Position numbers and translations under genes: made by a program. The notes below the pieces were generated by a model. It ran no database searches, had not been told where the DNA came from, and worked only from the letters and a program-made list of their open reading frames with translations. From the NCBI GenBank assembly GCA_963798085.1, contig CAWCRS010000003.1:992001-1056000 (forward strand): DNA of 64,000 nt, read 5' to 3'. Origin of the DNA: an uncultured Gemmatimonadales bacterium. Its GTDB lineage: Bacteria; Gemmatimonadota; Gemmatimonadetes; Longimicrobiales; RSA9. Shown here one piece after another: positions 16,597 to 62,377 of the stretch; positions within the stretch are counted from its first letter, which is position 1; each line of letters begins with the position of its first letter.

Positions 16597-16738
16597 CGGA
16601 CCGTCCTGGCATTCTTGCGTTGCGGCCGGTTCGGTCATGGGGCCGACTCGGTTACGTATCGACGGACCACTTTGCATGTCGGAGTGGGTCGCTGGAATGG
16701 GGGAAGAAGCCGAAAGGAAAGAACGCCAAGACGGTCCG
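16597..16738. repeat. 142-bp terminal-inverted-repeat element, copy 1
   Basis: CGGACCGTCCTGGCATTCTTGCGTT ... AAGGAAAGAACGCCAAGACGGTCCG; core CGTATCGACGGACCACTTTGCATG. Confidence 0.9.
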
Positions 16739-16749
16739 ACAGGGGTCTG

Positions 16750-18624
16750 TTAACCCGTGCGTGCGCGCGTGGTGACTCCGGGCGTAATGGGAGGCGAGGG
16801 CGCGAAGAGCGGCAGCGCCAGGGCGGTGGCGGCGCCAATGAGCAGACCGCTGACTGCGCCGATCACGATCGCGGGCACCATGGGTGCGCGAATGAGCGTG
16901 GGCAGGAATGCCTGCGTCGCGCCGACGAACCAGAGGTAGGCGAAGCCCCAGCCCACCACGTTCATGAAGACCCAGGCGAGGCGGCCGACGCCGCGCACGC
17001 GCGCAGCCCACGTCTGCGCCAGCCCGAGGATCACGCCATCGAGCACGCCCTTCATGAAGGCCGCGCCGTTCGAGACGTGCACCACGCCCCAGATGTTCTT
17101 CGAACTCTGCACCGGGATCTGCCAGCGCAGGATGCACGCGGCAATGATGGCGCCCATCCAGAGCTGCGCGGCCGGCGGCACGGATCGCTTGCGCAGGAAC
17201 AGCAGTGTCGCCAGACCCAGGAGCACGCCTTCGACCAGGCCGCCCACGAAGCGCGACGCCAGATTCCACTGCGCGAAACGCAGCAGGCCGCCCGTGATGA
17301 AACCGGACGCGGCGAAGGCCAGCGCATTCGCCGCCACCCACTCGCCGCGTGGCCCCAGACGCGTGAGCCAGTCGTTCACGGGCAGTCGGCTGAGCGATTC
17401 CGAAATCTGTTTCGCGGACGGCAGTGCAGCCAGCGAATCCGCGAGCGGCCGGCCGGCCGGGCCCGGCTGTATCGCCGCGCCGGTGCCATGAGGCGGTGTC
17501 GCCGTCTGTGCTGCGGCCGGCCCCGCGCCTGACAGCATGTTAGGGGCAGGCGACGATGCCAGTTCCGCCGTCGTTCCCGTGGCTGGCGCCACTGCCGCTG
17601 CAGCGGGCGGAACCAGCGGGCCAGCAGGCGGTGCAGCCGCCGACGACGGGCGCACGCTGAGGGGCGAGGCGCGCAACACATCCTCGGCAGCCTGGCGCAC
17701 CTGTTTGCTACGGTCGGCGTCCGCAATGCGCTGCAGCGCAGTACGCGCGGCCACCGCCACGGAAGCATCGGGACTGACGAGCAGCCGCTCCAGCTCGCGC
17801 ACAGCGGTGAGGCGGACGGCCGCCTGCGTGTCTTCCAGCTGGTGGCGCACACCGGAGGGCAGCGAAACCGGCAGCGAGTGCTGGCGTCGCGGATTGCGCG
17901 CGATTACCAGCATGCCCTGCTGGTTGTAGACCCACTTGCGCGGCGTCTGGCTGGGCGTCGAGCTGACGATCTTTCCGTACGCGTAATCGTACAGCGCATC
18001 GAGCGTGATGGTGTCCTCACTCGATGCGGCGCCTGTTACGAGCCCCTCCAGCAGGTAGTGCGTGAACAGCGAAAGCTCGGCCCGTTCGATGACGCGGTCC
18101 CCTTCGAGTGCGTACTGCGTGGCGTCCGATGCGGTGAGTACCACGCGGCCGTAGCCGTTGCCCGCGAACATGTCCGCGGTCACGGCAGTGGGATCGCCTT
18201 TCACGCCGCGCGCGAACGCGCCGCTGTTGCAGCAGTCGAGGATGAGGATCTGGCGCTTGGACCGGCACTCGTCCATGTGCTCGACCACGAAGCCGGAGGA
18301 GATGGCGGTGGCGCTGAGCTGGTGGTAGTCGGTGTCGCGCACCGCGAGGTACAGGCGGCCGCGATCATCCTTCACGCCGTGACCGGAGAAGAAGAACAGC
18401 AGCAGGTCATCGGGATGGCGGCGCGTGAAGAAGTCGGCAATGGCGCGCCGCACGATGGACTCGCTCTGGTCGATCAGCTCCTGGACCTGATCGAACTCGC
18501 CAATGCCGGGATCACGCAACGCTGCGGCCAGCGAGCGCACATCCGCGGCGGGCGCCTTGAGCCGGGTGAGCGTGGCGTCGTCATACGTGCTGTTGCCAAT
18601 GAACAGCGCGAGTCGCTTCGGCAT
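16750..18624 (-). CDS. Caspase-like peptidase C14 (EACC1-associated type) with HEAT-like segment, Pro/Ala linker and C-terminal multi-TM region
   Basis: ALFIGNSTY, SGHG and ILDCCNSG catalytic dyad, SLFTHYLLEGL, QTPRKW; hydrophobic C-terminal ~200 aa. Confidence 0.9.
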   Translation of the reverse strand: MPKRLALFIGNSTYDDATLTRLKAPAADVRSLAAALRDPGIGEFDQVQELIDQSESIVRRAIADFFTRRHPDDLLLFFFSGHGVKDDRGRLYLAVRDTDYHQLSATAISSGFVVEHMDECRSKRQILILDCCNSGAFARGVKGDPTAVTADMFAGNGYGRVVLTASDATQYALEGDRVIERAELSLFTHYLLEGLVTGAASSEDTITLDALYDYAYGKIVSSTPSQTPRKWVYNQQGMLVIARNPRRQHSLPVSLPSGVRHQLEDTQAAVRLTAVRELERLLVSPDASVAVAARTALQRIADADRSKQVRQAAEDVLRASPLSVRPSSAAAPPAGPLVPPAAAAVAPATGTTAELASSPAPNMLSGAGPAAAQTATPPHGTGAAIQPGPAGRPLADSLAALPSAKQISESLSRLPVNDWLTRLGPRGEWVAANALAFAASGFITGGLLRFAQWNLASRFVGGLVEGVLLGLATLLFLRKRSVPPAAQLWMGAIIAACILRWQIPVQSSKNIWGVVHVSNGAAFMKGVLDGVILGLAQTWAARVRGVGRLAWVFMNVVGWGFAYLWFVGATQAFLPTLIRAPMVPAIVIGAVSGLLIGAATALALPLFAPSPPITPGVTTRARTG

Positions 18625-18655
18625 CGTCGCGCGCGCGAACCGGGATCGGAAAGGG

Positions 18656-19030
18656 TCAGGCCTTGGCGGTGGCGCCCGTCTTGAACGAAGCGGCCAGTCG
18701 GGCGAATTCGTCGATGGCGCCCTGGAACTTCACCGGATTGCCGTTCACCTGGCCCTCGAACATGATCGTGCCGCCCGTCTTGTGCAGCCGCTTCTGCAGC
18801 AGTGCCAGCACGATCTCGAGCGCCGTGGCGGACGCCTTTACGAGGAGCACGATCGTGTCCGCGTCGATGCCCTTGGTACCGGGCGGCGCGGTCCCTTCGT
18901 GCACGATTTCGGCGGACTCCACAGGCTGATCGCGCAGCTCGTGCAGCAGATCCCGTGTCAGCAGATCGATCTCTTCGCGGTCACCGTCGGCGGAACCGAC
19001 TTTGATCCTGAACTCGAGCGGTCTGGTCAT
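18656..19030 (-). CDS. EACC1-like effector-associated constant component
   Basis: 124 aa with EIDLLTRDLLHEL...APPGTKG followed by a hydrophobic helix; immediately upstream of the caspase. Confidence 0.75.
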   Translation of the reverse strand: MTRPLEFRIKVGSADGDREEIDLLTRDLLHELRDQPVESAEIVHEGTAPPGTKGIDADTIVLLVKASATALEIVLALLQKRLHKTGGTIMFEGQVNGNPVKFQGAIDEFARLAASFKTGATAKA

Positions 19031-19121
19031 GGCAAGCGCCGGGGAGAGGGGTCAGGCGATGTCGACTTTCGATTATCGCGACGAGCCCGTTCCGCGTCCA
19101 GAGTGCGGCCGCGGGCGCGGC

Positions 19122-19487
19122 TCAGCAGGGCTTGTTCTCCAGAACCTCGATCCGATCCGGCAGGTTGGGAACGACGCAGAGGAATTCGAAGGGTTCGTCG
19201 CCCTCGGCTTCGTACCAGTGGGGCATGCCCGCCGGAATGTAGACCACGTCATTGACCTTGACCTCGAACACGCTGTCGCCAATGCCGACGCGAGCGCGGC
19301 CGCGCAACACGAACTGCTCGTGCTCGACCACGTTCGTGTGGCGAGGCATGCCGCCGCCCGGTTCCATGATGAAGCGGCGCATCGCGAAGTGCGGGCCCTC
19401 GTCCGGCCCGATCAGTACCTGGAAGCGTGCATCCTTGCCGGCCTTCACCACCTGTGCCGGTACCGTTTCCGCCGGTTTCACCGCCAT
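19122..19487 (-). CDS. Cupin-domain protein
   Basis: MPRHTNVVEHEQFVL and IPAGMPHWY cupin motifs. Confidence 0.85.
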   Translation of the reverse strand: MAVKPAETVPAQVVKAGKDARFQVLIGPDEGPHFAMRRFIMEPGGGMPRHTNVVEHEQFVLRGRARVGIGDSVFEVKVNDVVYIPAGMPHWYEAEGDEPFEFLCVVPNLPDRIEVLENKPC

Positions 19488-19501
19488 GGTCGGAGCCCTC
19501 C

Positions 19502-20440
19502 TCAGTCGGCGAACGCGAGCTGGCCGCGCGCCCGTAATTCCTGCGGCAGCAGACTGCCCAGGATGAAGTCGTGGACAGGTGTGGGCACGCCGCTCTGCCG
19601 GCCGAACCGGACGACGGCGCCGCACCAGTCGTCCAGCTCGGAGGCACGACCGGCCGCGATATCGCGCTGCAGCGAGATCGTGCTGGCGGGCGCGAGGCTT
19701 TCGAGGAACTTCCAGGCGCGGCCCACCACCTGGTCGTCCAGAGCGATGCCCAGCGCGCGGGTGACCGCTTCGATTTCCCGGATTGCCTGATCCAGCAGCC
19801 GGCGGGTCTCGGGCAGATCCCGCAGTACGCCGACCGGCGCGCGCGTGATGGCACCGACGCCGCCCGCGGGCACCACATTGAGCAGCTTTTCCCACAAGGC
19901 GAGCCGGATGTCAGGAGAGACGGTCGCCTTGATGCCGGGCACATCGAGCAGGTCACGCACCCGCTGCGCGCGCTCGCTCGGCCGGCCATCACGCTCGCCC
20001 AGCTCGATGGCGGCGGGCCCGCCCACATGGCGGACGTGACCCGGGCCGGCGAGAAAGCTCACAATGCGGGCCGTGCCGCCCAGCACGGGCGGGTCGCCCA
20101 GGACGGCCGCAAGCCGGTCCGGCGCTTCCACGCCGTTCTGCATGGGCAGCACCGACGTGCCCTCACCCACCATCGGACGCATGGCCTCGGCGGCTTCGGT
20201 CACCTGCCAGGTCTTGACGCCCACCAGCACGAGGTCGACGGGACCGACGTCCGACGGCTCCGATGTCGCAGCCGGCCGCACGTGCACATCGCCCAGCACG
20301 CTCTCCAGGCGCAAACCCGACTGGCGCAGTGCCTGGAGATGCGCACCACGCGCGATCAGCGTGACTTCATGCCCCGCCGCAGCCAGCCGGCCCCCGAAAT
20401 AGGCGCCGGTGCCACCCGCGCCGAAAACCGCGATTCGCAT
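19502..20440 (-). CDS. panE: 2-dehydropantoate 2-reductase
   Basis: MRIAVFGAGGTG, VKTWQ, QNGVE, LWEK and SLQRD..AGR.SELD motifs. Confidence 0.9.
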   Translation of the reverse strand: MRIAVFGAGGTGAYFGGRLAAAGHEVTLIARGAHLQALRQSGLRLESVLGDVHVRPAATSEPSDVGPVDLVLVGVKTWQVTEAAEAMRPMVGEGTSVLPMQNGVEAPDRLAAVLGDPPVLGGTARIVSFLAGPGHVRHVGGPAAIELGERDGRPSERAQRVRDLLDVPGIKATVSPDIRLALWEKLLNVVPAGGVGAITRAPVGVLRDLPETRRLLDQAIREIEAVTRALGIALDDQVVGRAWKFLESLAPASTISLQRDIAAGRASELDDWCGAVVRFGRQSGVPTPVHDFILGSLLPQELRARGQLAFAD

Positions 20441-20467
20441 GCGCCACAATACGCCCTCGGCTGGCGC

Positions 20468-20513
20468 AAAAAAAGCCGGGCCCGGCGTCGCGTGAGCGGC
20501 TCCGGGCCTCGGC
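20468..20513 (-). terminator. Intrinsic terminator
   Basis: Minus strand GCCGAGGCCCGG...CCGGGCCCGGC followed by T7. Confidence 0.75.
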
Positions 20514-20576
20514 GGGGGCGAGCGGGTTTCAGGGGAGGCTCGCATCGGTGCGCGACGTCTGGCGTCGCTGGCTGAC
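20468..20576 (-). ncRNA. Candidate ~110-nt small RNA
   Basis: Lies between a sigma54-like promoter and an intrinsic terminator; no credible ORF; contains CCUCCCCU. Confidence 0.45.
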
Positions 20577-20586
20577 ACGTTACTAC

Positions 20587-20603
20587 AGCGATCCGCATGC
20601 CCA
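20587..20603 (-). promoter_or_regulatory. Sigma54-like -24/-12 promoter
   Basis: TGGGCATGCGGATCGCT (GG-N10-GC). Confidence 0.5.
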
Positions 20604-20780
20604 TCGCGCAGGACGGCGCAAGCCGGCGTAATTCGTTGTTATACAAGCGAAAGTCACAATACGGGCCGGCCGTGAAGCGCTGAATTGTCGGCCGGATACC
20701 CCAGAAATCGTTGTGAGGGAGCAACAATGCGGTGAAGCGGAGAGCCTTGCGGAACGGCGCAAGTCGTTACGCGAAGCCGA

Positions 20781-21338
20781 TCAACGCCAGCCGGTGTGCT
20801 TCTGCGGCGATGTGGGAGGACGGCGCCGGAAAGGAATGACGTAGGGCTGCTCCGGCAGCTCGGGCAGGCGGTCGAGCGTGGCGGCAGGCAGGGCATCGCG
20901 GCCCGCGATCCAGCCCTTGCCGCCAAGCACTATGAGGACCGGCACTGCCAGGGTCGCGACCAGCAGGGCGCGCAGCGACGTCGCATCGAACCCGGTCCGA
21001 CTTCCTGCGTCCACGACCGCCCGCACCTGCGCATAGTCGAGCAGGAAGCGTACGATCGAGGCGCCCAGCAACAGTGCGCCAACAAGGGCGAAAGCCGAGA
21101 GCAGCCGCAGCAGGAGCCGGTGGCCCAGCGTGACGGCAACGGTCATCGCGAGAGCCAGCCCGAGCAGCTGCAGGATCACAGCGCTGAAGCCAATGCCCAG
21201 CGAACCGAAGCGCCAGGAGGCTTCAAGCGGGCGAACGGGGAAGGCGGAAACCAGGTCGATGGCCGGACCAACCACGAGGAAGGCTGCCACTGCGTACAGG
21301 CCGGGGAGGAAGCTCCGAACGTCGGCGTTGCGGACCAT
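20781..21338 (-). CDS. Hypothetical 4-TM membrane protein
   Basis: 185-aa ORF with four hydrophobic segments and WRFGSLG; GAAGGA precedes the start. Confidence 0.75.
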   Translation of the reverse strand: MVRNADVRSFLPGLYAVAAFLVVGPAIDLVSAFPVRPLEASWRFGSLGIGFSAVILQLLGLALAMTVAVTLGHRLLLRLLSAFALVGALLLGASIVRFLLDYAQVRAVVDAGSRTGFDATSLRALLVATLAVPVLIVLGGKGWIAGRDALPAATLDRLPELPEQPYVIPFRRRPPTSPQKHTGWR

Positions 21339-21380
21339 GGGCCGTCCTTCGAAAGGGCAAACGCGCTGGTCCGCTGGAAT

Positions 21381-21396
21381 TGCGAAACCCGTGCCC
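21381..21396 (-). promoter_or_regulatory. Sigma54-like -24/-12 promoter
   Basis: GGGCACGGGTTTCGCA, about 43 nt upstream of ATG 21338. Confidence 0.55.
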
Positions 21397-21613
21397 TGGA
21401 CGGTCCGAACACGTAACGCCGTGTCGGCTACTCAGTTGTCACTCGATACATCGGGTGACGAAGGGGCCGGTAGCGGCCACGAGGTGGGGCAGCCGTTCGC
21501 TGGCTGTTGCCCGCCAGCTACAGCGTCACGCGTGGCAAGTCCCGGAAGAGGTGCCGCCTGGGTCCGGCGATGCGGCCGCCGCGCTGACCGGTGTGGCTAG
21601 CGGCTGCTTGACG

Positions 21614-22345
21614 TCAGCCGATCCAGACGACGTCGCGGAACAGCTCATCGAGCCTTGGAACGCCGGACTCGCGACGCCCGGTCACGGTTTCGGGCACGGT
21701 TTCGGTGGGCTCGGGCGAAAGGTGTTCCTCGGCCTCATCGACCAGGAGCGGTTCCGGCTCGGCGGCGGATGGCTGCGCCGCCACGGTGTCGAGGCGCTCG
21801 ACGGCACCGTTCACGGACTCCTCGGTACCCGCCCGGCCGGAATCGAAGTAGACGGCGGCCAGCTTCTGGTCGGCTTCCGGATCGACGAAGTGGAAGCTCT
21901 TGTTCCAGAATCCGGCGGGTGCCCACTCAATGCGGCCATCAGGACCTATGCGACGGCACATCTTGCCTTCGGCGACGGCGACATCGTTCCAGAATGTGCC
22001 GGAGGCCTCGTCACTGGAACTCCAGTCCGCCACCGTGACGCCGCACTTCCACACGCCATTGTCGATGAGGCGGCGGGCGATGCGTGCGACGAAGGGTCGT
22101 TCGTAGCTGGTGCGTCTCGAGAGCGCGTCGATGTTGTGTCCGAACTCGAGTCCGCAAAACAGGAGCACCGCGGCCTTGAAGGTCGGGCTCGACGGCGGCA
22201 GATCCGCGTTGTAGCGGCGGATCTTCGCTTCGATCTCACGCATCGTGGTCCGTGGCCGGCCTCCTCCGGCGCCCAGAAAACAGGAGCCTGGAGGTCCTTC
22301 CTTGACCGGTTCGTGGTCCCAGTGTGCGGTCGGCAGCTCGTGCAC
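21614..22345 (-). CDS. Hypothetical protein with possible HTH segment and acidic tail (start 22345 or 22243)
   Basis: Protein-like composition: FKAAVLLFCGLEFGHNIDALSRRTSYERPFVARIARRLIDNGVW...FWNDVAVAEG. Confidence 0.7.
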   Translation of the reverse strand: MHELPTAHWDHEPVKEGPPGSCFLGAGGGRPRTTMREIEAKIRRYNADLPPSSPTFKAAVLLFCGLEFGHNIDALSRRTSYERPFVARIARRLIDNGVWKCGVTVADWSSSDEASGTFWNDVAVAEGKMCRRIGPDGRIEWAPAGFWNKSFHFVDPEADQKLAAVYFDSGRAGTEESVNGAVERLDTVAAQPSAAEPEPLLVDEAEEHLSPEPTETVPETVTGRRESGVPRLDELFRDVVWIG

Positions 22346-22485
22346 GGATTCTTTCCGTTGAGTCGGAGACGCGGGACACGGCCCCGCCGTGCCCGCGATC
22401 CGACGATACGTTCCCCCGGCGGGGCGCCGCGTCCGGGCGGACGCTGCGGAGCCCACCAACACCCCCCTGGTGCGCAGTACCGAAG

Positions 22486-22501
22486 AGCGAGGAGTATGCC
22501 G
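22486..22501 (-). promoter_or_regulatory. Sigma54-like -24/-12 promoter
   Basis: CGGCATACTCCTCGCT (GG-N10-GC). Confidence 0.45.
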
Positions 22502-22611
22502 AGCAGCGTCCCCCATGGTGGCCTCCGAGTCCAAGCACAAGAATCGCATGATCTTATCCCGCTGGTGGGAATGCGCGGCACGTTTCCCCGACAGGCCAGG
22601 ATCCACCCCTT

Positions 22612-22630
22612 TTGCAACGACCCGTTGCAA
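22612..22630. promoter_or_regulatory. Perfect palindrome, candidate activator-binding site
   Basis: TTGCAACG-ACC-CGTTGCAA in the divergent intergenic region, about 110 bp upstream of the sigma54-like site. Confidence 0.5.
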
Positions 22631-22789
22631 GCTGCACGTCCACTTTTGAAACGCGGTGTCGGATCCGGTGCGGGCTCACTGCCGTCCGGGTGAGCATGGT
22701 TCGCCGCAGCAGTGGCGCGCTGCCGCCTTCCACCGCATCCTCATGACGCTTGCTGCAGTTCATCGTTCCGCCCGGCAAGGAGGCCCACT

Positions 22790-23281
22790 GTGGATACCGT
22801 CCGCATCACCGTGAATGGCACCACGCATTGGAATGCGATCGAGCCGCGTCTGCTGCTCGTGCAGTATCTGCGGGATGTCCTTGGCCTCACCGGAACCCAC
22901 ATCGGTTGCGACACGAGTCAGTGCGGTGCGTGCACCGTGCTGCTCGATGGTCTCGCGGTGAAATCGTGCACCCTGTTCGCCGTGCAGGCCGATGGCGCGA
23001 GCGTGGAAACCGTCGAGGGCCTGGCGAAGAACGGACAGCTGCATCCCGTGCAGGAAGCATTCTGGGAAAAGCACGGCCTGCAATGCGGCTTCTGCACGCC
23101 GGGCATGCTGATGGCCACGGAAGCACTGCTGCGTGAGAACGCGGATCCATCGGAAGCGGAAATCCGTCACGCTCTCGAGGGCAATCTCTGCCGCTGCACC
23201 GGCTACCACAACATCGTGAAAGCCGTGCAGTACGCCGCCGGCGCGCGCAGGGGCGGCGTGCGCGCAGAGTCACCCGCGTGA
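22790..23281 (+). CDS. coxS: Mo-hydroxylase small 2Fe-2S subunit
   Basis: [20 protein letters not shown] and NLCRCTGY motifs; GTG follows AAGGAGG. Confidence 0.92.
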
Positions 23282-23297
23282 TGGAGACGAGGAAACC

Positions 23298-25667
23298 ATG
23301 ACGACGAATTCAGGTCGACTGTTCGGCGCGAGCATCAAGCGGCGCGAAGATCCGCGGCTCATCACGGGCAAGGGCAACTACACCGACGACATCCGTCTGC
23401 CGGGCATGACGCACGCCGCGTTCGTGCGCAGCCCGTACGCGCACGCGCGCATCCGCTCGATCGACTTTGCGGAGGCCGCGAAACAGCCGGGTGTGATTGC
23501 TGTGTACATTGGCAAGGATCTGGCCGATGGCGGAGTGAATCCGATTCCCGTGGGTTGGCTGCTCGATGGACTCAAGATGGGTGAGCGACGGGCGCTGGCC
23601 ATTGATCGCGTGCGTTACGTGGGCGAAGCCGTGGCCATGGTGATCGGGGAAAACGCCCATGCCGCGCGCGACGGTGCAGAACTCGTGGACGTGAGCTACG
23701 AGCCGCTGCCTGCGGTGGCCGATGTGGCGCGCGCCGTGGAGCCGGGTGCACCGCAGCTCTACGCCGATGCGCCGCGCAACATCTGCTTCGAGTGGAGCAT
23801 CGGCGATGCGACCGCGACCGATGCGGCGCTCCGCGGCGCGGCGAAAGTCGTGCGCCAGCGACTCGTGAACAACCGGCTGATTCCCAACGCCATCGAGCCA
23901 CGCGCCTGCGTTGCCAGCTGGAACGCGGCCACGCAGGACATGACGCTCTGGGTGACTTCGCAGAACCCGCACGTGCATCGCCTCATCATGGGCGCATTCG
24001 TGCTGGGCATTCCTGAGCACAAGTTCCGCGTGATCTCGCCGGATGTGGGCGGCGGGTTCGGCTCGAAGATCTTCGTGTATCCCGAGGAAGTGGCGGCGTG
24101 CTTCGCCACGAAGGCCGTGGGCCGGCCCGTGAAATGGACGGCGGAGCGGCGCGAGAGCTTCATGACCGATGCACACGGCCGCGACCACGTCAGCGATGCC
24201 GAGCTGGCCGTATCCGCCGATGGGAAGATCCTGGGACTGCGGGTGCACACACTGGCGAACCTGGGAGCCTGTCTGTCGCTGTTCGCGCCCGTGGTCCCCA
24301 CGTACCTCTACGGCACGCTGCTCTCCGGCCAGTACACGATTCCTGTAATCCATTGTCAGGTAACAGGCGTGTTCACAAACACGGTGCCGCTGGATGCGCT
24401 GCGCGGCGCGGGCAGGCCGGAAGCGACGTTCGTGGTGGAGCGCATGATCGATCTGGCGGCGCTCGAGCTGGGGCTGGATCCGGCGGAGATCCGGCGTCGC
24501 AACATGGTGGGCGCCGACCAGTTCCCCTACCAGACGCCGGTGGCGCTGCAGTATGACAGCGGCAGTTACGAAGTGGCGCTGGACCTGGCCATGAAGCGCA
24601 TCGACTACACGGCCCTGCGCGCACGGCAGAAGCAGCTGCGCGCGGACGGGCGGTACCTGGGCATCGGCTTCTCGTCCTACATCGAGGCGTGCGGCCTCGC
24701 GCCCTCGAAGATCGTGGGCGCACTGGGAGCGCAGGCCGGACTTTACGAAAGCGGACAGGTCCGCGTCCATCCGACGGGCAAGGTGACGGTGTTCACCGGC
24801 TGCCAGAGCCAGGGACAGGGCCACGAGACCACGTACGCGCAGATTGTCGCCGATGAGCTGGGCCTCGCCGTCGAGGACGTCGAGGTGGTCCATGGCGACA
24901 CGGCCACGATCGCGTTCGGCATGGGCACGTACGGCAGCCGCAGCGGGCCGGTGGGCGGATCGGCGCTCTTCCTCAGCGCGCAGAAGGTGAAGAAGAAGGC
25001 GATGAAGATCGCGGCGCACCAGCTCGAGGCTGCGGAAGAAGACATGGTTGCTGAGGGCAACCGCTACCACGTGAAGGGGTCGCCTGACCGCTTCAAGACC
25101 TTCCAGGACATGGCGCTGGGTGCCTACCTCGCGCACAACATCCCGGACGGAATGGAGCCGGGACTCGATGCGACGACGTTCTTCGATCCGCCGAACTGGA
25201 CCTACCCGTACGGCACGCACATCGCCGTCGTGGAAGTGGATGCAGAAACCGGTCACGTGACGCTCGAGCGCTACGTCGCCGTGGATGATGTGGGCAATGT
25301 GATCAATCCCATGATCGTGGACGGCATGCTGCACGGCGGCATCGCGCATGGCGTGGGACAGGCGCTCTGGGAAGAGGCGAGGTACGACGAGAACGCGCAG
25401 CTGATCACGGGCTCGATGATGGAGTACGCGCTGCCCAGGGCGGACCAGCTGCCCAGTTTCGAAACCGAGCGCACGGTCACGCCTTCGCCCAGCAACCCGA
25501 TGGGTGTGAAGGGCGCGGGTGAAGCGGGGGCGATCGCGTCGCCGGCGGCCATTTCTAACGCCGTGTTGGACGCGCTCGCGCCGTTCGGCATCCGGCACCT
25601 GGATATGCCGTACACAGCACAGAAGGTGTGGCAGGCCATTCAGGCGGCTCAGGGAGGAGTGCACTGA
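23298..25667 (+). CDS. coxL: Mo-hydroxylase large subunit, form II CoxL-like
   Basis: [19 protein letters not shown] (form II-like loop), GQGHETT, TYGSRS and KGAGEAG motifs. Confidence 0.9.
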
Positions 25668-25668
25668 C

Positions 25669-26538: not shown

Positions 26539-26545
26539 CACAGCG

Positions 26546-28159: not shown

Positions 28160-28319
28160 CGAAGACCCGGGATCAGTGGCGACCCGATAGCATCTCCGGC
28201 GTCGCATTCGCAGCACGAGCATCACAAACGAGCACAGCACAGGGGCGCGTTGCCAGCGCCCATCCCGAACTGCGCGGCAGAGTCGCTGACGACTGCAGGC
28301 GAAGGGAGGTTTGTGAGCA

Positions 28320-33654: not shown

Positions 33655-33882
33655 CGGACCGTCTTTGCGTTCTTGGGTTTGGCGGATCTTCCCATGCGCG
33701 CGGACTGCCACGGTCGCGAGCTGCCATACGGCTGGCCCGCACCACCATGGAATCGGGCGCACAACGGTTTATTGTTCGCTGGCTTTCGTCCGGCGGGCAG
33801 CATTGTGCCCGCGCATCGGCAGTCCACCCGGGTCGAGAAGATAGTCGGAAGGAGCACAACCCAAGAACGCCAAGACGGTCCG
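33655..33882. repeat. 228-bp variant of the element with two A-type ends, copy 3
   Basis: CGGACCGTCTTTGCGTTCTTGGGTT ... AACCCAAGAACGCCAAGACGGTCCG. Confidence 0.8.
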
Positions 33883-41002: not shown

Positions 41003-41014
41003 GCGCGCCCCGGG

Positions 41015-48728: not shown

Positions 48729-48900
48729 TGACTACAATAGGGACATCGATGGGCGGCCGAGGGTTGCGGGGCTGGAGGTTGCCCAGGGGTGAGTGGGGGC
48801 CGGGCAGGGGAGGCAGGAGCTGTGGCTCGGGGGGTTGTGGTGGCTGGTATGCGGGGCGCCGCCTTGAGGTGGGGGAGGGAGGGCGCAGAGGAGGACGCGA

Positions 48901-49004
48901 GAGAGTGAGGACGCGAGAGTGAGGACGCGAGAGTGAGGACGCGAGAGTGAGGACGCAAGGAAGCGCGCGGACCAGGGCCCAAAGGCGGGCGAGAGTGAGG
49001 ACGC
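48901..49004 (+). repeat. 14-bp tandem repeat GAGAGTGAGGACGC, four copies plus a detached fifth
   Basis: Exact copies at 48901, 48915, 48929, 48943 and 48991. Confidence 0.95.
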
Positions 49005-53358: not shown

Positions 53359-53371
53359 GTCAGTTCTTCGT

Positions 53372-53402
53372 CCGGGGGCCCTTCCACGCGGAGGGCTCCC
53401 GG
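53372..53402 (+). terminator. Hairpin after the stop, putative terminator
   Basis: CCGGGGGCCCTTCC-ACGC-GGAGGGCTCCCGG; no U-tract. Confidence 0.5.
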
Positions 53403-53674
53403 CGGTGGGTGCAAGTCTCTGACTTCCGCGAGCCCAGGGGTCAATGTGTCCGTGCGCAACAAATGTTGGCGAGCGCGCGAGACCTCACGACGGCGGAGCG
53501 ACTGCGGCCGGGCTGCGCGGAAGCCTGAAGGCGTATCGAGCAGACGTAGTCCGCTGCAGCCAAGATGCGCAGGTGGAGGCAGTGCCAGCCCGGCCTCGAC
53601 AGCGTCAGCGCACGCCCGGATGATCGCCCTGGCCAGGCCTGTGGCCGGGTGCTTCTGGCAAGATCCGGTCTGGC

Positions 53675-53690
53675 TGGCACATTACCTGCT
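53675..53690 (+). promoter_or_regulatory. Sigma54-like promoter upstream of the helicase gene
   Basis: TGGCACATTACCTGCT (TGGCAC, GG-N10-GC). Confidence 0.55.
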
Positions 53691-53919
53691 GCTGCGTGTA
53701 GCACAGTTCGCGGCGTTCTGCTGGTTCGATCCGATTTCGTCCCACAACCCCGCCACTATTGAACCGGAGCGACCGCGCGGCAGACCCCACCCGGGTTTCC
53801 TCTCGAGAACATCCGATCAGCGTGGCGACTCGCCGCCCGGTGACAGCGAAATGCGCTGTTACCATGGCACTCGCGCAGGAATGACCTGCGCGTCGCCACA
53901 CCCATGAACAAAGGGAACA

Positions 53920-55170
<1,251 letters not shown>

Positions 55171-55194
55171 GCCACTAACGCGGCGTCAGGCGGG

Positions 55195-56595
55195 TCAGGG
55201 CGTGCCGCCGCCGTTCCCGCCACCGCGGCCGGCGCGTCCCCCGCGATCGCCGCCGCGGCCGACGGGGGGCTGCGGCCCGCCGTGGAAGAACTGGCCGGGC
55301 GTCATGATGCCGTTCTGCTTGAACACCATGCCGTCCTTCATGACGAATTGCACGTTGCGCAGCGCGTCGATGTCAGCGAGCGGATTGCCCTGCACTGCGA
55401 TGAGGTCGGCGAGCAGCCCGGCCCGGATGGGGCCGCGCGTGTTCTCGGTCTGCGCCACGCGGTAGCCGTTCACGGTCATGGCGCGCAGGATATCCACGTT
55501 CGGAATCTTCGCATCCTTCCATGTCGTCAGGAACTCGATCGCCACCTCGCCCCGGGTCCTGCCGGGCACGAAGTAGTCGGCATCCGTGGAGAATGCCAGC
55601 AACACCTTGTTATCGTATGCGTTCTTCAGCAGTTCGACCGTACGCTGGTAGCGCTGCGGACTGGTGTGGCCGGTGAGCGTGATGGGGGTCTCCGTGCCAC
55701 AGCGCCAGATGCCTTTCTGCGCCATCAGCTTGTGGATCTCGTCGGTCATGCCGTTGTCGTGGGCAATGGACCAGATGCCGGCCTCGACCGCGCGCCGGGC
55801 GCCAGCGACGGTCTGCACGTGGCCCTCCACCTTGAGTCCGGCCTTCGCCGCCTCCGCAATGACGAGCCTGATGTCGTCTACCGAGTAGCCCCATGGCTTG
55901 CAGTCGACGCAGATCTTGATGACACGCGCACCGAACAGCTCGTTCTGGCGCACCGCCTTCACGATCTCGTCAGGCGTGTCCGCGTCGAGGTATTCGGGAT
56001 ACACGATGTCGTGCTGCTTCGCCATCTCCGGCGTGGGCGAGAACTGGCCGCCCATGCCGCCGATGATGATGCCGGAGTTGATGATCGTGGGCCCGGGGAT
56101 CCAGCCCTGCTCGATGGCCTGGCGCAGCGCCGTGTCGGCATAGTTGCCGTTGTTGCCCATGTCACGCACGATGGTGAAGCCGGCGGCCAGCATCTGCATG
56201 CCGTTCGATGCCGCCTGGATGGCGCGCAGCGGCGTCGAGTCCAGCACGTACGTCAGGTAGTAGTTGTTGTTCTCGGGCACTTCCTTGTAGGTAAGCGCGA
56301 GATGGTTGTGTGCATCGACGAGCCCGGGCAGCACCGTGAGCTGCGAGAGGTCGATCACCTGCGCGCCCGCGGGAATCGGGACATTGGGTCCGATGGCCGT
56401 GAAGCGCGCGTTCTCGACCACGATCACCTGGTTGCTGAGCACGGTGCCCGCCTCCGGGTCGATCAGGCGACCCGCGCGAATCACGATCGGGGCGGGCGAG
56501 GCCTGAGGCACCGCCTGCGCCGCGAGATGCGACGTCGAAGCGAACAGCAGGACTGCGAGACTGCGCAGCCGTCGACACCACGATGCGAGTTTCAT
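55195..56595 (-). CDS. Secreted amidohydrolase, Xaa-Pro dipeptidase-like
   Basis: LPGLVDAHNH, GFTIVRDMG and ADLIAV.GNPL motifs. Confidence 0.88.
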   Translation of the reverse strand: MKLASWCRRLRSLAVLLFASTSHLAAQAVPQASPAPIVIRAGRLIDPEAGTVLSNQVIVVENARFTAIGPNVPIPAGAQVIDLSQLTVLPGLVDAHNHLALTYKEVPENNNYYLTYVLDSTPLRAIQAASNGMQMLAAGFTIVRDMGNNGNYADTALRQAIEQGWIPGPTIINSGIIIGGMGGQFSPTPEMAKQHDIVYPEYLDADTPDEIVKAVRQNELFGARVIKICVDCKPWGYSVDDIRLVIAEAAKAGLKVEGHVQTVAGARRAVEAGIWSIAHDNGMTDEIHKLMAQKGIWRCGTETPITLTGHTSPQRYQRTVELLKNAYDNKVLLAFSTDADYFVPGRTRGEVAIEFLTTWKDAKIPNVDILRAMTVNGYRVAQTENTRGPIRAGLLADLIAVQGNPLADIDALRNVQFVMKDGMVFKQNGIMTPGQFFHGGPQPPVGRGGDRGGRAGRGGGNGGGTP

Positions 56596-56805
56596 GGGCG
56601 CGCCTCGGCGTGACCGTTGTCGTGAGCGGATCGCCTGTGCGGGTCAGGCGACGATGGGTGGTCCGGGTTGCCTGAGACTATCGAGCCAACGGCCCACCGC
56701 AAGATCGCTGCAGTGGAACGCAGGCGGGGCGCTCACAGCCAGCACCACCGCCGCGAACCGCACGTGGCTGTGTCGCCTGCAACAGGCTGTTCTCCGACGA
56801 GCCGG

Positions 56806-57999
56806 TCAGCGCCTCACGAGGGGGTACAGCGCGACGACCTCACGATCCACGTCATCCTGGGTCACGCCGAGGATGTAATCGGCTCCGATCTCGAGGATGC
56901 GGAGAGCGGGCGTGTGCACGCGGCCGAGCGGCTCTCCGGCCGCCGAGAGGACTTCCCAGATGAGGCGAGCCGCATCGGCAGGATCCTCGCGGCCGACCCA
57001 CACTCTGTTCAGCCGATCCACCTGCAGGGCGGCGAAAGCCGGATGCGTCGGGCGATTCGGCAACTCGGCATAGAATCGCTCCCACATCTGCGCGCGCTCA
57101 CCGCTTCCCATGCGACGCAGGTGGTCCTGTTTCCACGCGCGCAGCTCGGCATCGGTGGTGGCGGGTGCGGGAGCGCGCGAACGGATGATCGTCGTGCGCC
57201 GGCCGGTCGCGTCGAAGGTGGACACCTGCCACGTGTCGCTGGCGCCAATGACAATCGTGTTCGCAGCCGCGGAAGCGAAGACATTGCGCCCGAAGGGAAT
57301 TTCCGAGCGCAGCGCCGCGTCGCCGACGCGGCCGAAGTACTGCTCGCTGCCCGGGAACGCGGCGATGGAGTCGAGGCGGGCACCCCCACGATCGAACAGG
57401 AAGTAGGGCACCGTGTCGCGCCGCTCACCGCGCGTGAAGATGCGATTGAAGCCCGGGACCACGAGCAGGGTCCCGTTGTCCAGCGTACCGACCGGCTCGG
57501 GGTATCCGGCATCGGGACTGGGCGGCTGCATGACGGACGCCCCCGACAGCTGTCCGTCGCCATTGAAGCGCGAGAGGCGGCGCGTCATGACGTCGTAGAC
57601 GAGGCTGGTATCGCCGGGCAGAACCTGCAGCGAGAACATGCCGCGGAATTCACCCGGTCCGCTGCCCGAGCGGCCGGTCGTCAGCGCGAGTGTGCCATCC
57701 GGCCGGAAGAAGCGCAGCTCGCCGCTCGTGCCATTGCCCAGCACCACGCGCCCGTCGGAGAGCACGCCGCCGCCGCGCACGCCGAACAGGTCGTGCCCGG
57801 GCCGCGCGTCCTGCCCACCGATCGTGAGGCGAGGCGAAGCGCCCAGGGTCCAGTCGGGAAGCGGCAGTGTCGCGATGTTCTCGATCTCGACGATGCGCAC
57901 CCCGGCACTGTCGCGCGTGACCGGCCCTGCGGAGGGTCTGGCTGTTTCGCCGCACGCCGCGAGCGAGAGCACGACCACGAGCACACCGGGCATTCGCAT
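56806..57999 (-). CDS. 6-bladed beta-propeller lipoprotein
   Basis: Lipobox LAAC; RDSAGVRIVE; GRSGSGPGEF. Confidence 0.8.
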   Translation of the reverse strand: MRMPGVLVVVLSLAACGETARPSAGPVTRDSAGVRIVEIENIATLPLPDWTLGASPRLTIGGQDARPGHDLFGVRGGGVLSDGRVVLGNGTSGELRFFRPDGTLALTTGRSGSGPGEFRGMFSLQVLPGDTSLVYDVMTRRLSRFNGDGQLSGASVMQPPSPDAGYPEPVGTLDNGTLLVVPGFNRIFTRGERRDTVPYFLFDRGGARLDSIAAFPGSEQYFGRVGDAALRSEIPFGRNVFASAAANTIVIGASDTWQVSTFDATGRRTTIIRSRAPAPATTDAELRAWKQDHLRRMGSGERAQMWERFYAELPNRPTHPAFAALQVDRLNRVWVGREDPADAARLIWEVLSAAGEPLGRVHTPALRILEIGADYILGVTQDDVDREVVALYPLVRR

Positions 58000-58402
58000 G
58001 GTTCGCGTATCGATTGCGCGTTTCACACCGGCCGCCATTTCTCTCGCGCACGGCATGGTAGTCGAACGACGGCACCGAAGGGCGCGCGCTCGCGGACGCG
58101 TGTCATGATCTGCATCGCTGCGTGCCAGCCTCCAGATCAGGTGCATTCGCCGGAGATTACGTGAGCAACTGTGACCCGGGTTTCGCCGAGCCAACCGCGC
58201 CGACATTAGGACAACGCCCGCATCTCGCGCGTTGCTGTCACGAAGAAGGGCTTCGCGTTGATCAAGGCCCAGACTTCCCGTGAAACCCGATCCACTCCGT
58301 ATCCCGGCCCGGTCCCGAACACCCTGGACTGGTACGCTCGGACCGTGCTGGCAAGTGGTCGGACCGACCCGGGCAATGGGCTGACCGACGTGGGCAAGTG
58401 GC

Positions 58403-58543
58403 CGGACCGTCTTGGCGTTCTTTCCTTTCGACCGCACAGGAAATCGGCATGACACATTGTCGCATGAAAAGCGTCAATTGATATCTGAGCGGGTCTACTG
58501 CATGGGTGGACCGGCCGGAACGCAAGAACGCCAACCCGGTCCG
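58403..58543. repeat. 141-bp element, copy 6
   Basis: CGGACCGTCTTGGCGTTCTTTCCTT ... AACGCAAGAACGCCAACCCGGTCCG. Confidence 0.9.
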
Positions 58544-58727
58544 ATACGATATGTCGATGCGTTCAGCATCGGACCGGGCTCTCATTCTGCGATGCGACTC
58601 GCCCAAGGACTTGTGGGCCGCGCCAGCTTCCGGGCCTGAGCTTCCGGACTGCACTGAATCTCCGGATCCTGCCTTGCCGGACTGCTCTGAACTTCCGGAC
58701 CTGAACAGCGGGACTGCTCTGAACCTC

Positions 58728-58869
58728 CGGACCGTGTTGGCATTCTTGCGTTACGGGTCGATCGGCCATGCCCTCGACCCATCATCGCATGCGAAATGGT
58801 CAATCGATACGTCAGCGGGCCGTGAGCATGGGCGGGTGCGCCGAAAGGAAAGAATGCCAAACTGGTCCG
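58728..58869. repeat. 142-bp element, copy 7
   Basis: CGGACCGTGTTGGCATTCTTGCGTT ... core CATGCGAAATGGTCAATCGATACG ... AAGGAAAGAATGCCAAACTGGTCCG. Confidence 0.9.
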
Positions 58870-58957
58870 GAAGCGCATGCCGGGTCCAGTCCAAAGAGCC
58901 GAGCTGCCGGACTGCTCTGAACTTGCGGACCTGAACAGCGGGACTGCTCTGAACCTC

Positions 58958-59099
58958 CGGACCGTGTTGGCATTCTTGCGTTACGGGTCGATCGGCCATG
59001 CCCTCGACCCATCATCGCATGCGAAACGGTCAATCGATACGTCAGCGGGCCGTGAGCATGGGCGGGTGCGCCGAAAGGAAAGAATGCCAAGCTGGTCCG
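58958..59099. repeat. 142-bp element, copy 8 (near-identical to copy 7)
   Basis: Part of a 195-bp direct duplication with a 230-bp offset. Confidence 0.9.
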
Positions 59100-59178
59100 A
59101 CAGGGTCCAATGTGAAAGTGTCGTAAAGCCGGGACGGCGTCCGTTGCCGCTCGGGCTGCCCGGACATAGGGTCGGTGG

Positions 59179-61116
59179 ATGACTCCAGTGCGGATGGGTC
59201 CGGGCGACCGTGCCCGGCAGGGTCGGCTGATCGGTTTCGTGGCGCCGCTCGTGCTGGTGGTGGTCTTTGCGGCGGCGCTCGCGTTCCAGGCGCTGGATGC
59301 GACGCGCTCGCACCGCGAGGCGGTGGCGCATACGCTGCGCGACTACGCTGGCTTCGCGGCGTTCATCGTGACGAACGCGGCGCGCCAGGAGCTGGAGCGA
59401 CGGCTCACGTACGCGTTCAGTCCCATCTTCCGCTATCAGCCGGAGTCGGGCGAGCCGCTGCCACCGGCCTCGGCGCTGGGCCAGGAGCGCGTGGAAGCGC
59501 AGCGTTGTGCGACGGCGGGTGTGCCCGATCCGACCTACTATCGCCTGGATCTTTCGAACAATTCATTAACCACAGCCGGGCCGGCGCCTTCCGCCAGCAC
59601 GCTGCAATGGCTGGCGGACACGCTGCGGGTCGCAGCGCCCGCGTTCCACGGCGATTGGGCGTTCGCACACATCTTCGGCGATGCGCACGCGGCGGCGCTC
59701 ATCGCCTACCGCGTGCTGCACGACTCCGCCGGGCACGCGCTGGCGGTGTACGCCAAGACCAGCTGCTTCGCGCTGCCGCGGCAGTCGCTTTTCGCGGCGG
59801 CGCTGCAGGCGGGACCGGCACTGCCTCCGTTTCTAACGGGCGGGCTGGCTAACGATTCATTGCTATCCGTGCGCGTGACCGATCCGCACGGAGACTCCAT
59901 CTGGGCATCCTCCCCGCAATACCAGGGCGGGCCCTCGGGCGAGGCAGGTTCGGCGTGGCCGCAGTCGGGTGGGCTGCGGCTGGCTGTGACCATCCGGCCC
60001 GACATCGCCAAACAGCTGGTTATCGGCGGCATGCCGCCGTCGCGGCTGCCCATGGCGGTGCTGCTGCTGGCGCTCAGCATTCTGTTTGCAGGCTACGCGG
60101 TATTGCAGTTGCGCCGGGAGCAGGAGCTGCTGCGGCTGCGTGAGCAGTTCGTGTCCAACGTCTCGCACGAGTTGCGCACGCCGCTGCAGCAGATCCTCAT
60201 GTTCGCCGAGCTGCTGAACATGGACGCCCTGCCCTCCGATGCGGAGCGCAGGCACTCAATGCAGGTAGTGGAGAGGGAGACGCGTCGTCTCATCCAGCTG
60301 GTGGAGAATGTGCTCCAGTTTTCGCGCGCGACGCAGGGCGAGGACACACTGTCCGAGCAGGTGGTGGCGCTCGAGCCGCTGGCGAGGGAGACCCTGCAGG
60401 CGTTCGCGCCACTGGCCCGTGCGGGCAATGCGCGGCTCACACTGCGCATCGAGCGCGACCACTCCCGGCGAGACAACCGCACTAACGATTGCGTTAGAGA
60501 CATTCCGATGACAGTGACGCTGCGCGACAGCGACGCTGCGGGGCACGACGCAGCTCGATCCGCGACCGTGAACAAACAGCAGGTTGCCGCGGATCACGGC
60601 GCTGAACAGGCGGCAGCCGGAGGAGGCGCCGAGGCGGAATCGTCGCCTGCCAGATTCGTTGCCGGGCGTGAGGCCTCGAGCCCGCGAAGTGATCAGGCGG
60701 GATCCGCCGCGGACCAGGACACCGCGGCTCTGGTGGCAGCGGGCCCGTTCGCGATTGCCGATGCAGCGGCCTTGCGACGCGTGCTGCTAAATCTGCTGGA
60801 CAATGCGGTGAAGTACGGACCTGCGAATCAGACCGTAACGGTAACGCTGACAGCGAATGCCGAGCACGCGACACTGATTGTTGATGACGAAGGTCCGGGA
60901 ATCCCGGCGTCCGAGCGCGAGCGCGTGTGGCAGGCGTTCCAGCGGCTGGCGCGCGAGGAAGGCGCGGCCATTGCCGGCAGCGGCATGGGCCTGGCCATTG
61001 TGCACGACCTGGTGCAGCGCATGGGCGGCGCGGCGCGCATTGAGCAGGCACCCGCAGGCGGGGCGCGTTTCATTGTCGAGCTGCGAGCGGCAGCCGGCGG
61101 CGGTGCAACGCCATGA
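59179..61116 (+). CDS. Membrane sensor histidine kinase
   Basis: Two TM segments; VSHELRTPL, NLLDNAVKY, DDEGPGI and GSGMGLA motifs. Confidence 0.9.
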   Translation: MTPVRMGPGDRARQGRLIGFVAPLVLVVVFAAALAFQALDATRSHREAVAHTLRDYAGFAAFIVTNAARQELERRLTYAFSPIFRYQPESGEPLPPASALGQERVEAQRCATAGVPDPTYYRLDLSNNSLTTAGPAPSASTLQWLADTLRVAAPAFHGDWAFAHIFGDAHAAALIAYRVLHDSAGHALAVYAKTSCFALPRQSLFAAALQAGPALPPFLTGGLANDSLLSVRVTDPHGDSIWASSPQYQGGPSGEAGSAWPQSGGLRLAVTIRPDIAKQLVIGGMPPSRLPMAVLLLALSILFAGYAVLQLRREQELLRLREQFVSNVSHELRTPLQQILMFAELLNMDALPSDAERRHSMQVVERETRRLIQLVENVLQFSRATQGEDTLSEQVVALEPLARETLQAFAPLARAGNARLTLRIERDHSRRDNRTNDCVRDIPMTVTLRDSDAAGHDAARSATVNKQQVAADHGAEQAAAGGGAEAESSPARFVAGREASSPRSDQAGSAADQDTAALVAAGPFAIADAAALRRVLLNLLDNAVKYGPANQTVTVTLTANAEHATLIVDDEGPGIPASERERVWQAFQRLAREEGAAIAGSGMGLAIVHDLVQRMGGAARIEQAPAGGARFIVELRAAAGGGATP

Positions 61117-61844
61117 GCGTGCGCATTCTGCTCATCGAAGACAACGCCGATCTCGCACTCGGGCTGCGTCGCAGCCTGGAGCTGGAGGGCTACGATGTGC
61201 ACGTGTCGCCCGAGGGCGGGGGCGCGCTCGAGCGGTTGCGGCGCGAGGCGTGGGACCTCGTCGTGCTCGATCTGATGCTGCCGGGAATCAGCGGGTTCCA
61301 GGTGTTGCGCGCCATGCGTGCCGAAGGCAACGAGACGCCGGTGCTGATCCTCAGTGCCCGTGGCGAAGAAGCCGACAAGGTACAAGGCTTCCGCCTGGGC
61401 GCGGACAACTACGCGGTCAAGCCTATCGGCGTGTTAGAGCTGCTGGCGCGCGTGGAAGCCATGCTGCGCCGCGCGCGCCTGGCAGAAGCGAGCCAGCCCG
61501 TGAGGCAGGTATTCCGCTTCGGCGATGTGCGCGTCGACACCGGCACGCGTTCCGTGCAGCGCGACGGTGCACTGCTCGAGCTGAGTCCCAAGGAGTTCGA
61601 CCTGCTGCTCTACCTGCTGCGCAGTGGTGGCGTGGTCGTGAGCCGCGGCGAGCTGCTGCGCGAGGTGTGGGGCTACAAGCGCGCCGTGCCCACGCGGACG
61701 GTCGACGCGCACATCGCGCTGCTGCGCGGCAAGCTGGAAGCCGACCCATCCCGCCCGAAGTACCTGCTGACCGCACGCAAGGCCGGCTACCGGCTGGACG
61801 TTTCCGCCGCCCAGACTGACAGCACGTTGCGGCTCCCGGGCTGA
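61113..61844 (+). CDS. OmpR-family response regulator
   Basis: ILLIED, LDLMLP, KEFDLL and RTVDAHI motifs. Confidence 0.92.
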   Translation: MSVRILLIEDNADLALGLRRSLELEGYDVHVSPEGGGALERLRREAWDLVVLDLMLPGISGFQVLRAMRAEGNETPVLILSARGEEADKVQGFRLGADNYAVKPIGVLELLARVEAMLRRARLAEASQPVRQVFRFGDVRVDTGTRSVQRDGALLELSPKEFDLLLYLLRSGGVVVSRGELLREVWGYKRAVPTRTVDAHIALLRGKLEADPSRPKYLLTARKAGYRLDVSAAQTDSTLRLPG

Positions 61845-61910
61845 CAGGTTACACCGGACCGGGACGTTCGCTGCACCCGGTTCGTGTGGTGTGGTTTGGC
61901 CAGCTTTCGT

Positions 61911-62052
61911 CGGACCGTCCTGGCATTCTTGGGTTCCGGCCGCAACGGCAATGGTCGCGACCCAGACACGCATGAATTGTGGTCAATCGATACGTGCCTG
62001 ATGTGCCGGCATTGGTGCCTGGGACGAAACGAAAGAATGCCAAGACGGTCCG
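61911..62052. repeat. 142-bp element, copy 9
   Basis: CGGACCGTCCTGGCATTCTTGGGTT ... AACGAAAGAATGCCAAGACGGTCCG. Confidence 0.9.
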
Positions 62053-62235
62053 AAAGCGATCCCCCCAACCCCGGGCGCAGCGCCGTCGCCGAGCCCGCGC
62101 CTCGGGCAAGGCACAGGTGGCAGGCCCGTGCCCAAGCCCGGCGGGGTGCCCGGCGCCTACCCCGGTCCGGCGCGGTCGCCGAGCCCGTGCCGCGCCATTC
62201 GACATCGCCAGGCCAGCCGCACTTCATCAGCGGAT

Positions 62236-62377
62236 CGGACCGTCCTGGCATTCTTGGGTTCCGGCCGCTACCGCCATGGCGGTGACCCGCGCAGGTATGA
62301 AAAGTGGTCAATCAATGCCTGGCTGCGCCGTCGGCATATGCGCGCGTGACGGAAGGAAAGAATGCCAAGACGGTCCG
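62236..62377. repeat. 142-bp element, copy 10
   Basis: CGGACCGTCCTGGCATTCTTGGGTT ... AAGGAAAGAATGCCAAGACGGTCCG. Confidence 0.9.

Follow-up and report, generated by a model that had tools for sequence, protein, structure and literature searches.

Ten elements of the window and their family in the genome

The window analysed here (64,000 nucleotides; positions 992,001 to 1,056,000 of contig CAWCRS010000003.1, assembly GCA_963798085.1) comes from an uncultured Gemmatimonadales bacterium, whose genome is called G000 below, and contains ten copies of a short element bounded by imperfect terminal inverted repeats (TIRs). The identity of these elements, the rule governing their lengths and their probable transposase are the subject of this report. 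All ten copies were confirmed at the starts given in a preliminary description of this DNA (Table 1; lengths measured from CGGAC to GTCCG). Nine have the 141-143 bp proposed there; the copy at 33655 measures 228 bp, and the length is not fixed for the family. Our own gene calling agreed that the copies are intergenic except the tenth, which alone overlaps a gene end (70 bp), and that no transposase is present among the called genes of the window; the genome has a single Y1_Tnp match, situated on contig C8. The copies at 58728 and 58958 form a 230-bp tandem duplication that includes flanking DNA (58675-59099), with units 98% alike.

Table 1 TIR elements of the window and features adjoining them.
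Start	End	Strand	Feature
16597	16738	.	TIR element, 142 bp, modal class
32174	32316	.	TIR element, 143 bp, modal class
32320	32329	.	Flank palindrome, CGAYATRKCG type, starting 13 bp outside the element end
33655	33882	.	TIR element, 228 bp, 8 helical turns longer than the modal class; modal core absent
40327	40468	.	TIR element, 142 bp; degenerate left TIR; occupies almost the entire gap between two genes
49198	49339	.	TIR element, 142 bp
58338	58402	+	End stutter: 21-bp tandem units (flank plus first TIR bases), outward from the 58403 copy
58403	58543	.	TIR element, 141 bp
58547	58556	.	Flank palindrome, CGAYATRKCG type, starting 13 bp outside the element end
58629	58727	+	End stutter: ~32-bp tandem units with terminal CGGAC, outward from the 58728 copy
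58728	58869	.	TIR element, 142 bp; unit 1 of the tandem duplication
58958	59099	.	TIR element, 142 bp; unit 2 of the tandem duplication
61911	62052	.	TIR element, 142 bp
62236	62377	.	TIR element, 142 bp; covers the last ~70 bp of a minus-strand open reading frame ending at 62308

Across the 6.23-Mb genome, 231 ends scored more than 14 bits with a weight matrix of the ends; a shuffled 1.1-Mb contig gave nothing over 13 bits. Joining each right end to the nearest left end gave 95 elements, of which 49 measure 141-144 bp, 45 measure 125-309 bp and a single one reaches 1054 bp; the ends left over are solo or stuttered partial ends. The combination of fixed length and central core proposed earlier holds for 49 of the 95, and the 45 of 125-309 bp lack that core. 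The ~25-bp imperfect TIRs and the internal motifs were borne out in 22 non-redundant 142-bp copies: TIRs of ~26 bp are 83-85% identical, CATG-like sites (~39 and ~100) 60-67% and the central core 62%, versus 47-51% between them. The ends read YCGGACCG, and the end logo contains no conserved palindrome or tetranucleotide tag. Target-site duplications are lacking, as had been noted: one of 3-8 bp is present in at most 1 of the 95 elements at any boundary tried. Two-base flank matches occur in 10-13 of the 95 at two offsets (~5 expected), an excess that in our view comes from a weak T-R-T bias in the bases next to the ends.

A CGAYATRKCG-type palindrome is placed exactly 13 bp outside the terminal CGGAC at 14 of 186 non-redundant ends (other offsets, one at most); it is one-sided, occurs across several length classes and is possibly a target determinant or a host-factor site. 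Gene context shows no preference (48 tandem, 24 convergent and 22 divergent). Contig C3 (1.1 Mb, 18% of the genome) carries 30 of the 49 modal-class copies, which suggests local spread; other lengths are more evenly spread. Near-identical copies are almost all tandem, with one dispersed relationship among 1156 distant pairs, and junction stutters are present at 15 of 190 ends (0.9% in the control). Fourteen long copies (contigs C1, C3, C5, C7, C8 and C9) share a CCATGG-N~19-TAGAAT-like internal module at offsets of ~90, 101 or 111, that is, 5, 6 or 7 turns from a sub-terminal box described below; its spacing is that of the probable promoter at the left ends of the gene-bearing elements, and its orientation toward the neighbouring gene is not consistent. 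An exact 20-base TIR had 5 matches in a metagenome scan, none with a partner end or a Y1 gene, which we read as chance, and no read joint skipping an element was found among the matches listed for one DNA run with a small share of this DNA and for two sister runs; no RNA run was listed as containing the sequence.

Length ladder, cognate transposase and orthologous sites

In contrast to the first description, the lengths are not fixed; they follow a ladder of 10.5-10.6 bp, the helical repeat. The copies were clustered by interior similarity, the modal class was counted once, periods of 5-20 bp were scanned and 5000 jittered nulls were generated. The best period was 10.5-10.6 bp, with R of 0.78, 0.70 and 0.72 on 27, 42 and 44 sequence clusters (0/5000 nulls) and 0.65 on 33 unique lengths; 40 of the 45 non-modal copies are within 2.5 bp of a peak. 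Controls showed no such phasing: R was 0.03 for 1129 intergenic gaps and 0.12 for 308 chance pairs of motifs. The held-out set drew on ten TIR groups of eight relatives and comprised 60 elements, inward-facing ends being paired by eye and unpaired ends excluded. Its 41 lengths outside 141-146 bp had a mean cosine of 0.49 at the period and phase of G000 (0/20000 nulls), and 32 of them fell within 2.5 bp of a peak (47% expected). The ~143-bp mode recurs among families with unrelated TIR bodies, and the shortest element seen, 122 bp, corresponds to approximately two of the end complexes proposed below.

The idea of constrained spacing with free intervening sequence was sustained by this phasing together with the divergence of the interiors. 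Eleven ~143-bp copies of the relative G016 have an interior likeness of 0.36, compared to 0.34 for shuffled sequences, and most long classes of G000 behave likewise; the 142-bp class of G000 shares ancestry. Slippage of 10-11-bp units was rejected as the source of the ladder (autocorrelation flat, 0.27-0.30, at lags 5-25); short scattered tandem repeats are present in at least 8 of 154 interiors. Seven weak or local matches to the long interiors were found elsewhere in the genome when capture of host DNA was checked, although unique host DNA would likewise give none. The long interiors of G000 also show end-phased AA/TT and GC periodicity (AA/TT 10.55 bp, Z 6.8, n=40).

The preliminary description had listed a REPIN-like or miniature inverted-repeat (MITE-like) element among its options and proposed looking for copies bracketing a Y1 or REP-associated tyrosine transposase (RAYT) gene. 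The ends do bracket such a gene: the 1054-bp element (C8:104626-105681) has the TIRs of the short elements and encodes a 338-amino acid protein, the single Y1_Tnp match mentioned above. This protein scores 80.9 bits against the REP-associated tyrosine transposase model NF047646 (cut-off 80), falls far under the cut-off of NF033573 and carries the motifs NHFH and YVHLNP of the class 2 pattern (NH[VYF]H, Y[IV]HLNP); H59, H61, Y118 and N122 are invariant in 13 of 13 aligned proteins. Its predicted structure (predicted local distance difference test, pLDDT, 81.9) has TnpA-REP 4ER8 as best structural match and ends in a helical C-terminal domain (pLDDT 80-93). The open reading frame (ORF; G000:C8:104703-105719) runs through the right TIR to a stop 38 bp beyond the element, and this read-through tail is modelled with low confidence.

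The elements, a family the preliminary description did not recognise, almost certainly belong to a TIRtron/TIRYT family (TnpA-Y1 subclass 2.1); TIR families associated with TIRtrons are described in PMC3733652. The subclass was assigned from the NF047646 score, the motifs, weak C-terminal helix-turn-helix (HTH) matches and the TnpA-REP-like fold. TIRtrons and TIRYTs (Di Nocera et al. 2013, PMC3733652) are equated with subclass 2.1 in the account of Quentin et al. 2018 (PMC6006769) and correspond to RAYT Group 1 (Bertels et al. 2017, PMC5581495). As in the published TIRtrons, a RAYT-like gene is situated between long TIRs unrelated to REPs, at a set ORF distance, with the same motifs and low gene copy number, and the TIRs are dispersed, often as dimers (94 short paired elements). 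The published proteins have a C-terminal HTH (Bac_DnaA_C, HTH_23 or HTH_28-like), to which the weak matches of the C8 protein may correspond. The differences are the terminal CGGAC(C/G), in which YCGGACCG shares only the GGWS part of a GGGGWSAS motif reported for some TIRs (the ends of relatives G031 and G344 start GGGGC); a longer protein (300-340 amino acids, compared to a median of 238); and a published description that, in its available portion, contains no length periodicity, shared sub-terminal box or mechanism, the words 'helical' and 'periodic' occurring 0 times in PMC3733652.

Close homologues of the C8 transposase are labelled Longimicrobiales at source, and G000 probably belongs to the same order. 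The clade was found in 34 of 73 genomes of the family and, in a phylum sample of 300 genomes, in just one other, of the same family (E<=1e-40); scanning genome contigs with the single C8 protein gave one weak, unrelated locus. Own TIRs 73-87 bp upstream of the start codon were found at 21 of 25 loci of homologous genes, including the C8 locus, and a partner end matching at least 16 of 24 bases at 25 of 29 further loci; most transposase-flanking TIRs start with CGGAC ~75 bp ahead of the start codon. In the relatives, TIR classes are dispersed mainly where the cognate gene is present, and the TIR of G000 is absent in 60 of 60 of them. The TIR body varies by family, and the left ends share a sub-terminal box (YATS..GCCCC) and a -10-like hexamer 6-7 bp ahead of the ATG. 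Box and hexamer probably form a leaderless promoter; the 44 host leaderless genes available for a promoter consensus are few for comparing the YATS box with a -35 element. Among 21 proteins, TIR similarity follows identity of the catalytic domain (rho 0.37) and not of the HTH (0.05), which fits binding of the shared box by the HTH, within the limits that kinship sets on such a comparison.

Ten orthologous sites and TIRtron loci were followed in genus g5 and in the pair G027/G343. An element is kept by congeners at five sites (143/143/153/142/154, 154/132, 173/226, 174/175 and 143/156 bp). The end pair is often retained in congeneric species, and the differences from the anchor (0, +10, -1, +11, -22, +53, +1 and +13 bp) are within 1 bp of whole turns in 7 of 8 cases. 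The orthologous interiors are barely alignable (z 0.5-3.9 over shuffles) between flanking genes 77-91% alike; as a measure of faster-than-neutral change this is limited by other intergenic DNA being equally unalignable (site G) and by third positions that at this G+C may be close to saturated. In other congeners these five sites and the remaining ones are without a TIR pair, two showing a one-sided remnant. G001, the one genome congeneric with G000, is ~70% alike and rearranged and offers no readable empty site. TIRtrons are kept in place in two genus pairs. At one orthologous element the ends are identical to those of the TIRtron of its own species (24/24, compared to at most 21 elsewhere), which suggests refreshment of elements by the resident enzyme. 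At a site occupied by a 153-bp TIR element in G005, G361 has a long inverted-repeat element of another kind, whose repeated ends are GC-rich (L277; G361:C163, ~4980-5370). Stutters that extend outward as long arrays of flank and partial TIR, like those of the window, are situated beside orthologous elements at L289 (G361:C1) and L290 (G356:C366).

The window includes other features as well. A 14-bp tandem repeat of about six copies, unrelated to the TIR, is situated upstream of the 49198 element (48875-48956). On the minus strand, a single 1309-amino acid ORF (12554-16483) joins trehalose-6-phosphate synthase (GT20), trehalose phosphatase and a GH15 trehalase-like hydrolase, that is, synthesis and breakdown domains fused in the same chain. 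The minus strand at 16750-19030 encodes a caspase-like Peptidase_C14 protein, preceded by a 124-amino acid ORF without Pfam match, which we presume to resemble the small partner genes of caspase-linked conflict systems. The cluster at 5365-12525 (plus strand) is presumably an operon for nitrous-oxide reductase that also includes cytochrome c and ABC genes.

A proposed phased duplex loop and the competing explanations

When two sites separated by 120-300 bp have to be in phase, protein-mediated looping of duplex DNA is implied, as argued in PMC3464196 for Paramecium internal eliminated sequences and helical-twist experiments. The TIRYT, as the sole protein tied to the ends and with a likely HTH missing from its hairpin-binding relatives, is the simplest candidate for the agent. 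We therefore read the elements as gene-less TIRtron end pairs whose lengths are helically quantised because the transposase likely synapses the two ends on one face of a duplex loop, a reading to which we give a probability of roughly 0.6. Each end would be a ~55-bp complex of the family-specific 26-bp TIR and the sub-terminal box (YATS ~39, GMCCC ~50) common to many families; the catalytic domain would read the TIR and nick at or near the invariant terminal CGGAC, and the HTH would bind the shared box, overlapping the gene's own probable promoter. Synapsis would need an in-phase loop, and copies with out-of-phase insertions or deletions would not be recognised, copied or refreshed and would decay; deletion bias would drive the survivors toward the smallest loops that still function (122-143 bp). 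The stutters and the tandem copies may arise by nick-primed re-synthesis at the ends; spread to new sites is presumably rare and free of target duplication.

Several observations weigh against this reading. The ladder by itself points to some protein complex that constrains duplex geometry; 9 of the 41 held-out lengths are off it, the worst fit being G008 (4 of 10 lengths 3.6-5.2 bp off), and the 10.55-bp AA/TT periodicity is absent in the interiors of the relatives (Z 0.17, n=25). The HTH matches of the C8 protein (HTH_23, HTH_28 and HTH_29, E 0.01-0.05) are under the Pfam cut-offs, and the correlation of domains with TIRs runs across kin and includes a short HTH segment. The followed orthologous sites contain no clean base-level empty junction, and the resident TIRtron is the best match in just 2 of 7 elements, with 4 ties and 1 favouring another species. 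Finally, the two TIRs of a G016 copy match each other better than those of other copies (p<0.001), which a hairpin mechanism also predicts.

The best surviving alternative, which we consider unlikely, is that the TIR pairs were domesticated as paired sites for a looping or wrapping protein and that host selection for small chromosomal loops keeps the phase; the protein would be a TIRYT without catalysis, a host nucleoid protein or gyrase. Persistence of elements and TIRtrons at orthologous sites across species, the rarity of dispersal, the end-phased periodicity in the long interiors of G000 and the internal module placed at whole turns in 14 long copies would all be expected of such loops. 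The catalytic residues are invariant, however, the element is missing at many orthologous sites (also in G357 and G359), gene context shows no preference, the module does not face a neighbouring gene consistently, and the TIR sequences differ freely by family yet track the transposase.

A further alternative is that of ordinary REPIN-like hairpins processed as single strands, with length classes inherited from few founders. PMC6006769 describes processing of single strands by the enzyme family, the two TIRs could pair as a long stem, the spacers of REPINs are said to vary while their ends are conserved (10.1101/2021.07.10.451892), and the common ancestry of the 142-bp class in G000 agrees with inherited lengths. 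A flexible single-stranded loop, however, gives no cause for a 10.5-bp ladder, which holds in sequence-unrelated copies, in families with different TIRs and in orthologous copies; moreover, TIR mismatches are uncompensated in G000 and a lone TIR folds weakly (-5 to -9 kcal/mol for 55-mers). Hairpins with inherited lengths are already disfavoured, and we regard them as improbable.

A structured RNA, another option of the preliminary description, or a terminator-like element found little in its favour and is very improbable: 23 of 92 non-modal-class ends lie within 10 bp of a stop codon and the inner TIR end is T-rich, but Rfam gave zero matches at the gathering score in the window, the interiors are unrelated, helical quantisation is a property of duplexes, complementarity between the two TIRs of a copy shows no excess (p=0.61; none at positions 27-45), and arm covariation is absent at positions 1-45 and slightly in excess at 46-60 (p=0.015). 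A DDE insertion sequence that happens to share its ends with the TIRtron might have given rise to classical MITEs. Such MITEs, suggested by the TIR architecture and by the helical dependence established for DDE transposon ends (cited in PMC3464196), are largely refuted by the cognate TIRtron and hardly credible, as there is no target duplication, the enzyme encoded by the sole long element bounded by these ends is a Y1 enzyme, and the pairing of gene and TIR is repeated at dozens of loci, no genome scan aimed at DDE families having been made.

Beyond synapsis on a phased duplex loop, this Y1-HUH clade may have left the single-stranded hairpin mechanism altogether, synapsing its TIRs across the loop in the manner of a cut-and-paste transpososome or a looping repressor, and refreshing or overwriting elements at fixed sites over species divergence. 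We offer this wider proposal tentatively, and judge the odds to be somewhat against it.

Known systems and the meaning of the ladder

The kind of element is known, and what is new are this family, the Longimicrobiales clade and the shared box, as members and details of it. REPIN-RAYT systems (10.1101/2021.07.10.451892) are similar in their inverted doublets, which are non-autonomous and keep their ends while the spacer varies, their non-duplicating transposase, vertical persistence and rare duplication; as in RAYT Groups 2 and 3, a low-copy, vertically kept transposase accompanies diverse, slowly duplicating elements. In contrast to them, the ends here do not have the form of short palindromic REP hairpins carrying a GTAG-type tag (they fold weakly), the spacer is helically quantised, and the enzyme is of Group 1, described as co-opted and single copy, REPINs being assigned to Groups 2 and 3. 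IS200/IS605 TnpA shares the Y1-HUH fold and the lack of target duplication, but uses sub-terminal hairpins as well as single-stranded circles and has neither TIRs nor an HTH tail (PMC6006769).

No report of helical phasing in the lengths of bacterial TIR, REP or MITE elements was found in the literature, subscription journals being largely outside the search. By analogy, the nearest precedent for the ladder is that of the internal eliminated sequences (IESs) of Paramecium (Arnaiz et al. 2012, PMC3464196), which have unique interiors and a ~10.2-bp helical length periodicity, read there as selection through a looped excision complex. The IESs are eukaryotic, undergo programmed excision by a domesticated piggyBac DDE enzyme and have a minimum of 26 bp, whereas the elements described here are bacterial, are linked to an HUH enzyme and have long conserved TIRs, with a minimum of 122 bp and a mode of 143 bp. 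The activity of IS1 and IS50 ends (cited in PMC3464196) also depends on end-to-end phase at short distances, in engineered spacers with DDE transposases and not in natural HUH populations.

Subclass 2.1 is the second-largest TnpA-Y1 group, present in 14.9% of the sampled species (PMC6006769); the available portions of the literature give no substrate or mechanism for it, and how RAYT-type elements multiply is likewise open there. The ladder predicts that activity oscillates with spacer length, with a period of 10.5 bp and peaks at 132, 143 and 153 bp. Natural pairs of enzyme and ends that differ in specificity are available by the dozen. If the reading is true, transposition by an HUH enzyme that brings two duplex ends together and leaves no target duplication on insertion would be a new route and might serve as a tool, and these genomes would record a natural helical-twist experiment for an enzyme class lacking a known mechanism.

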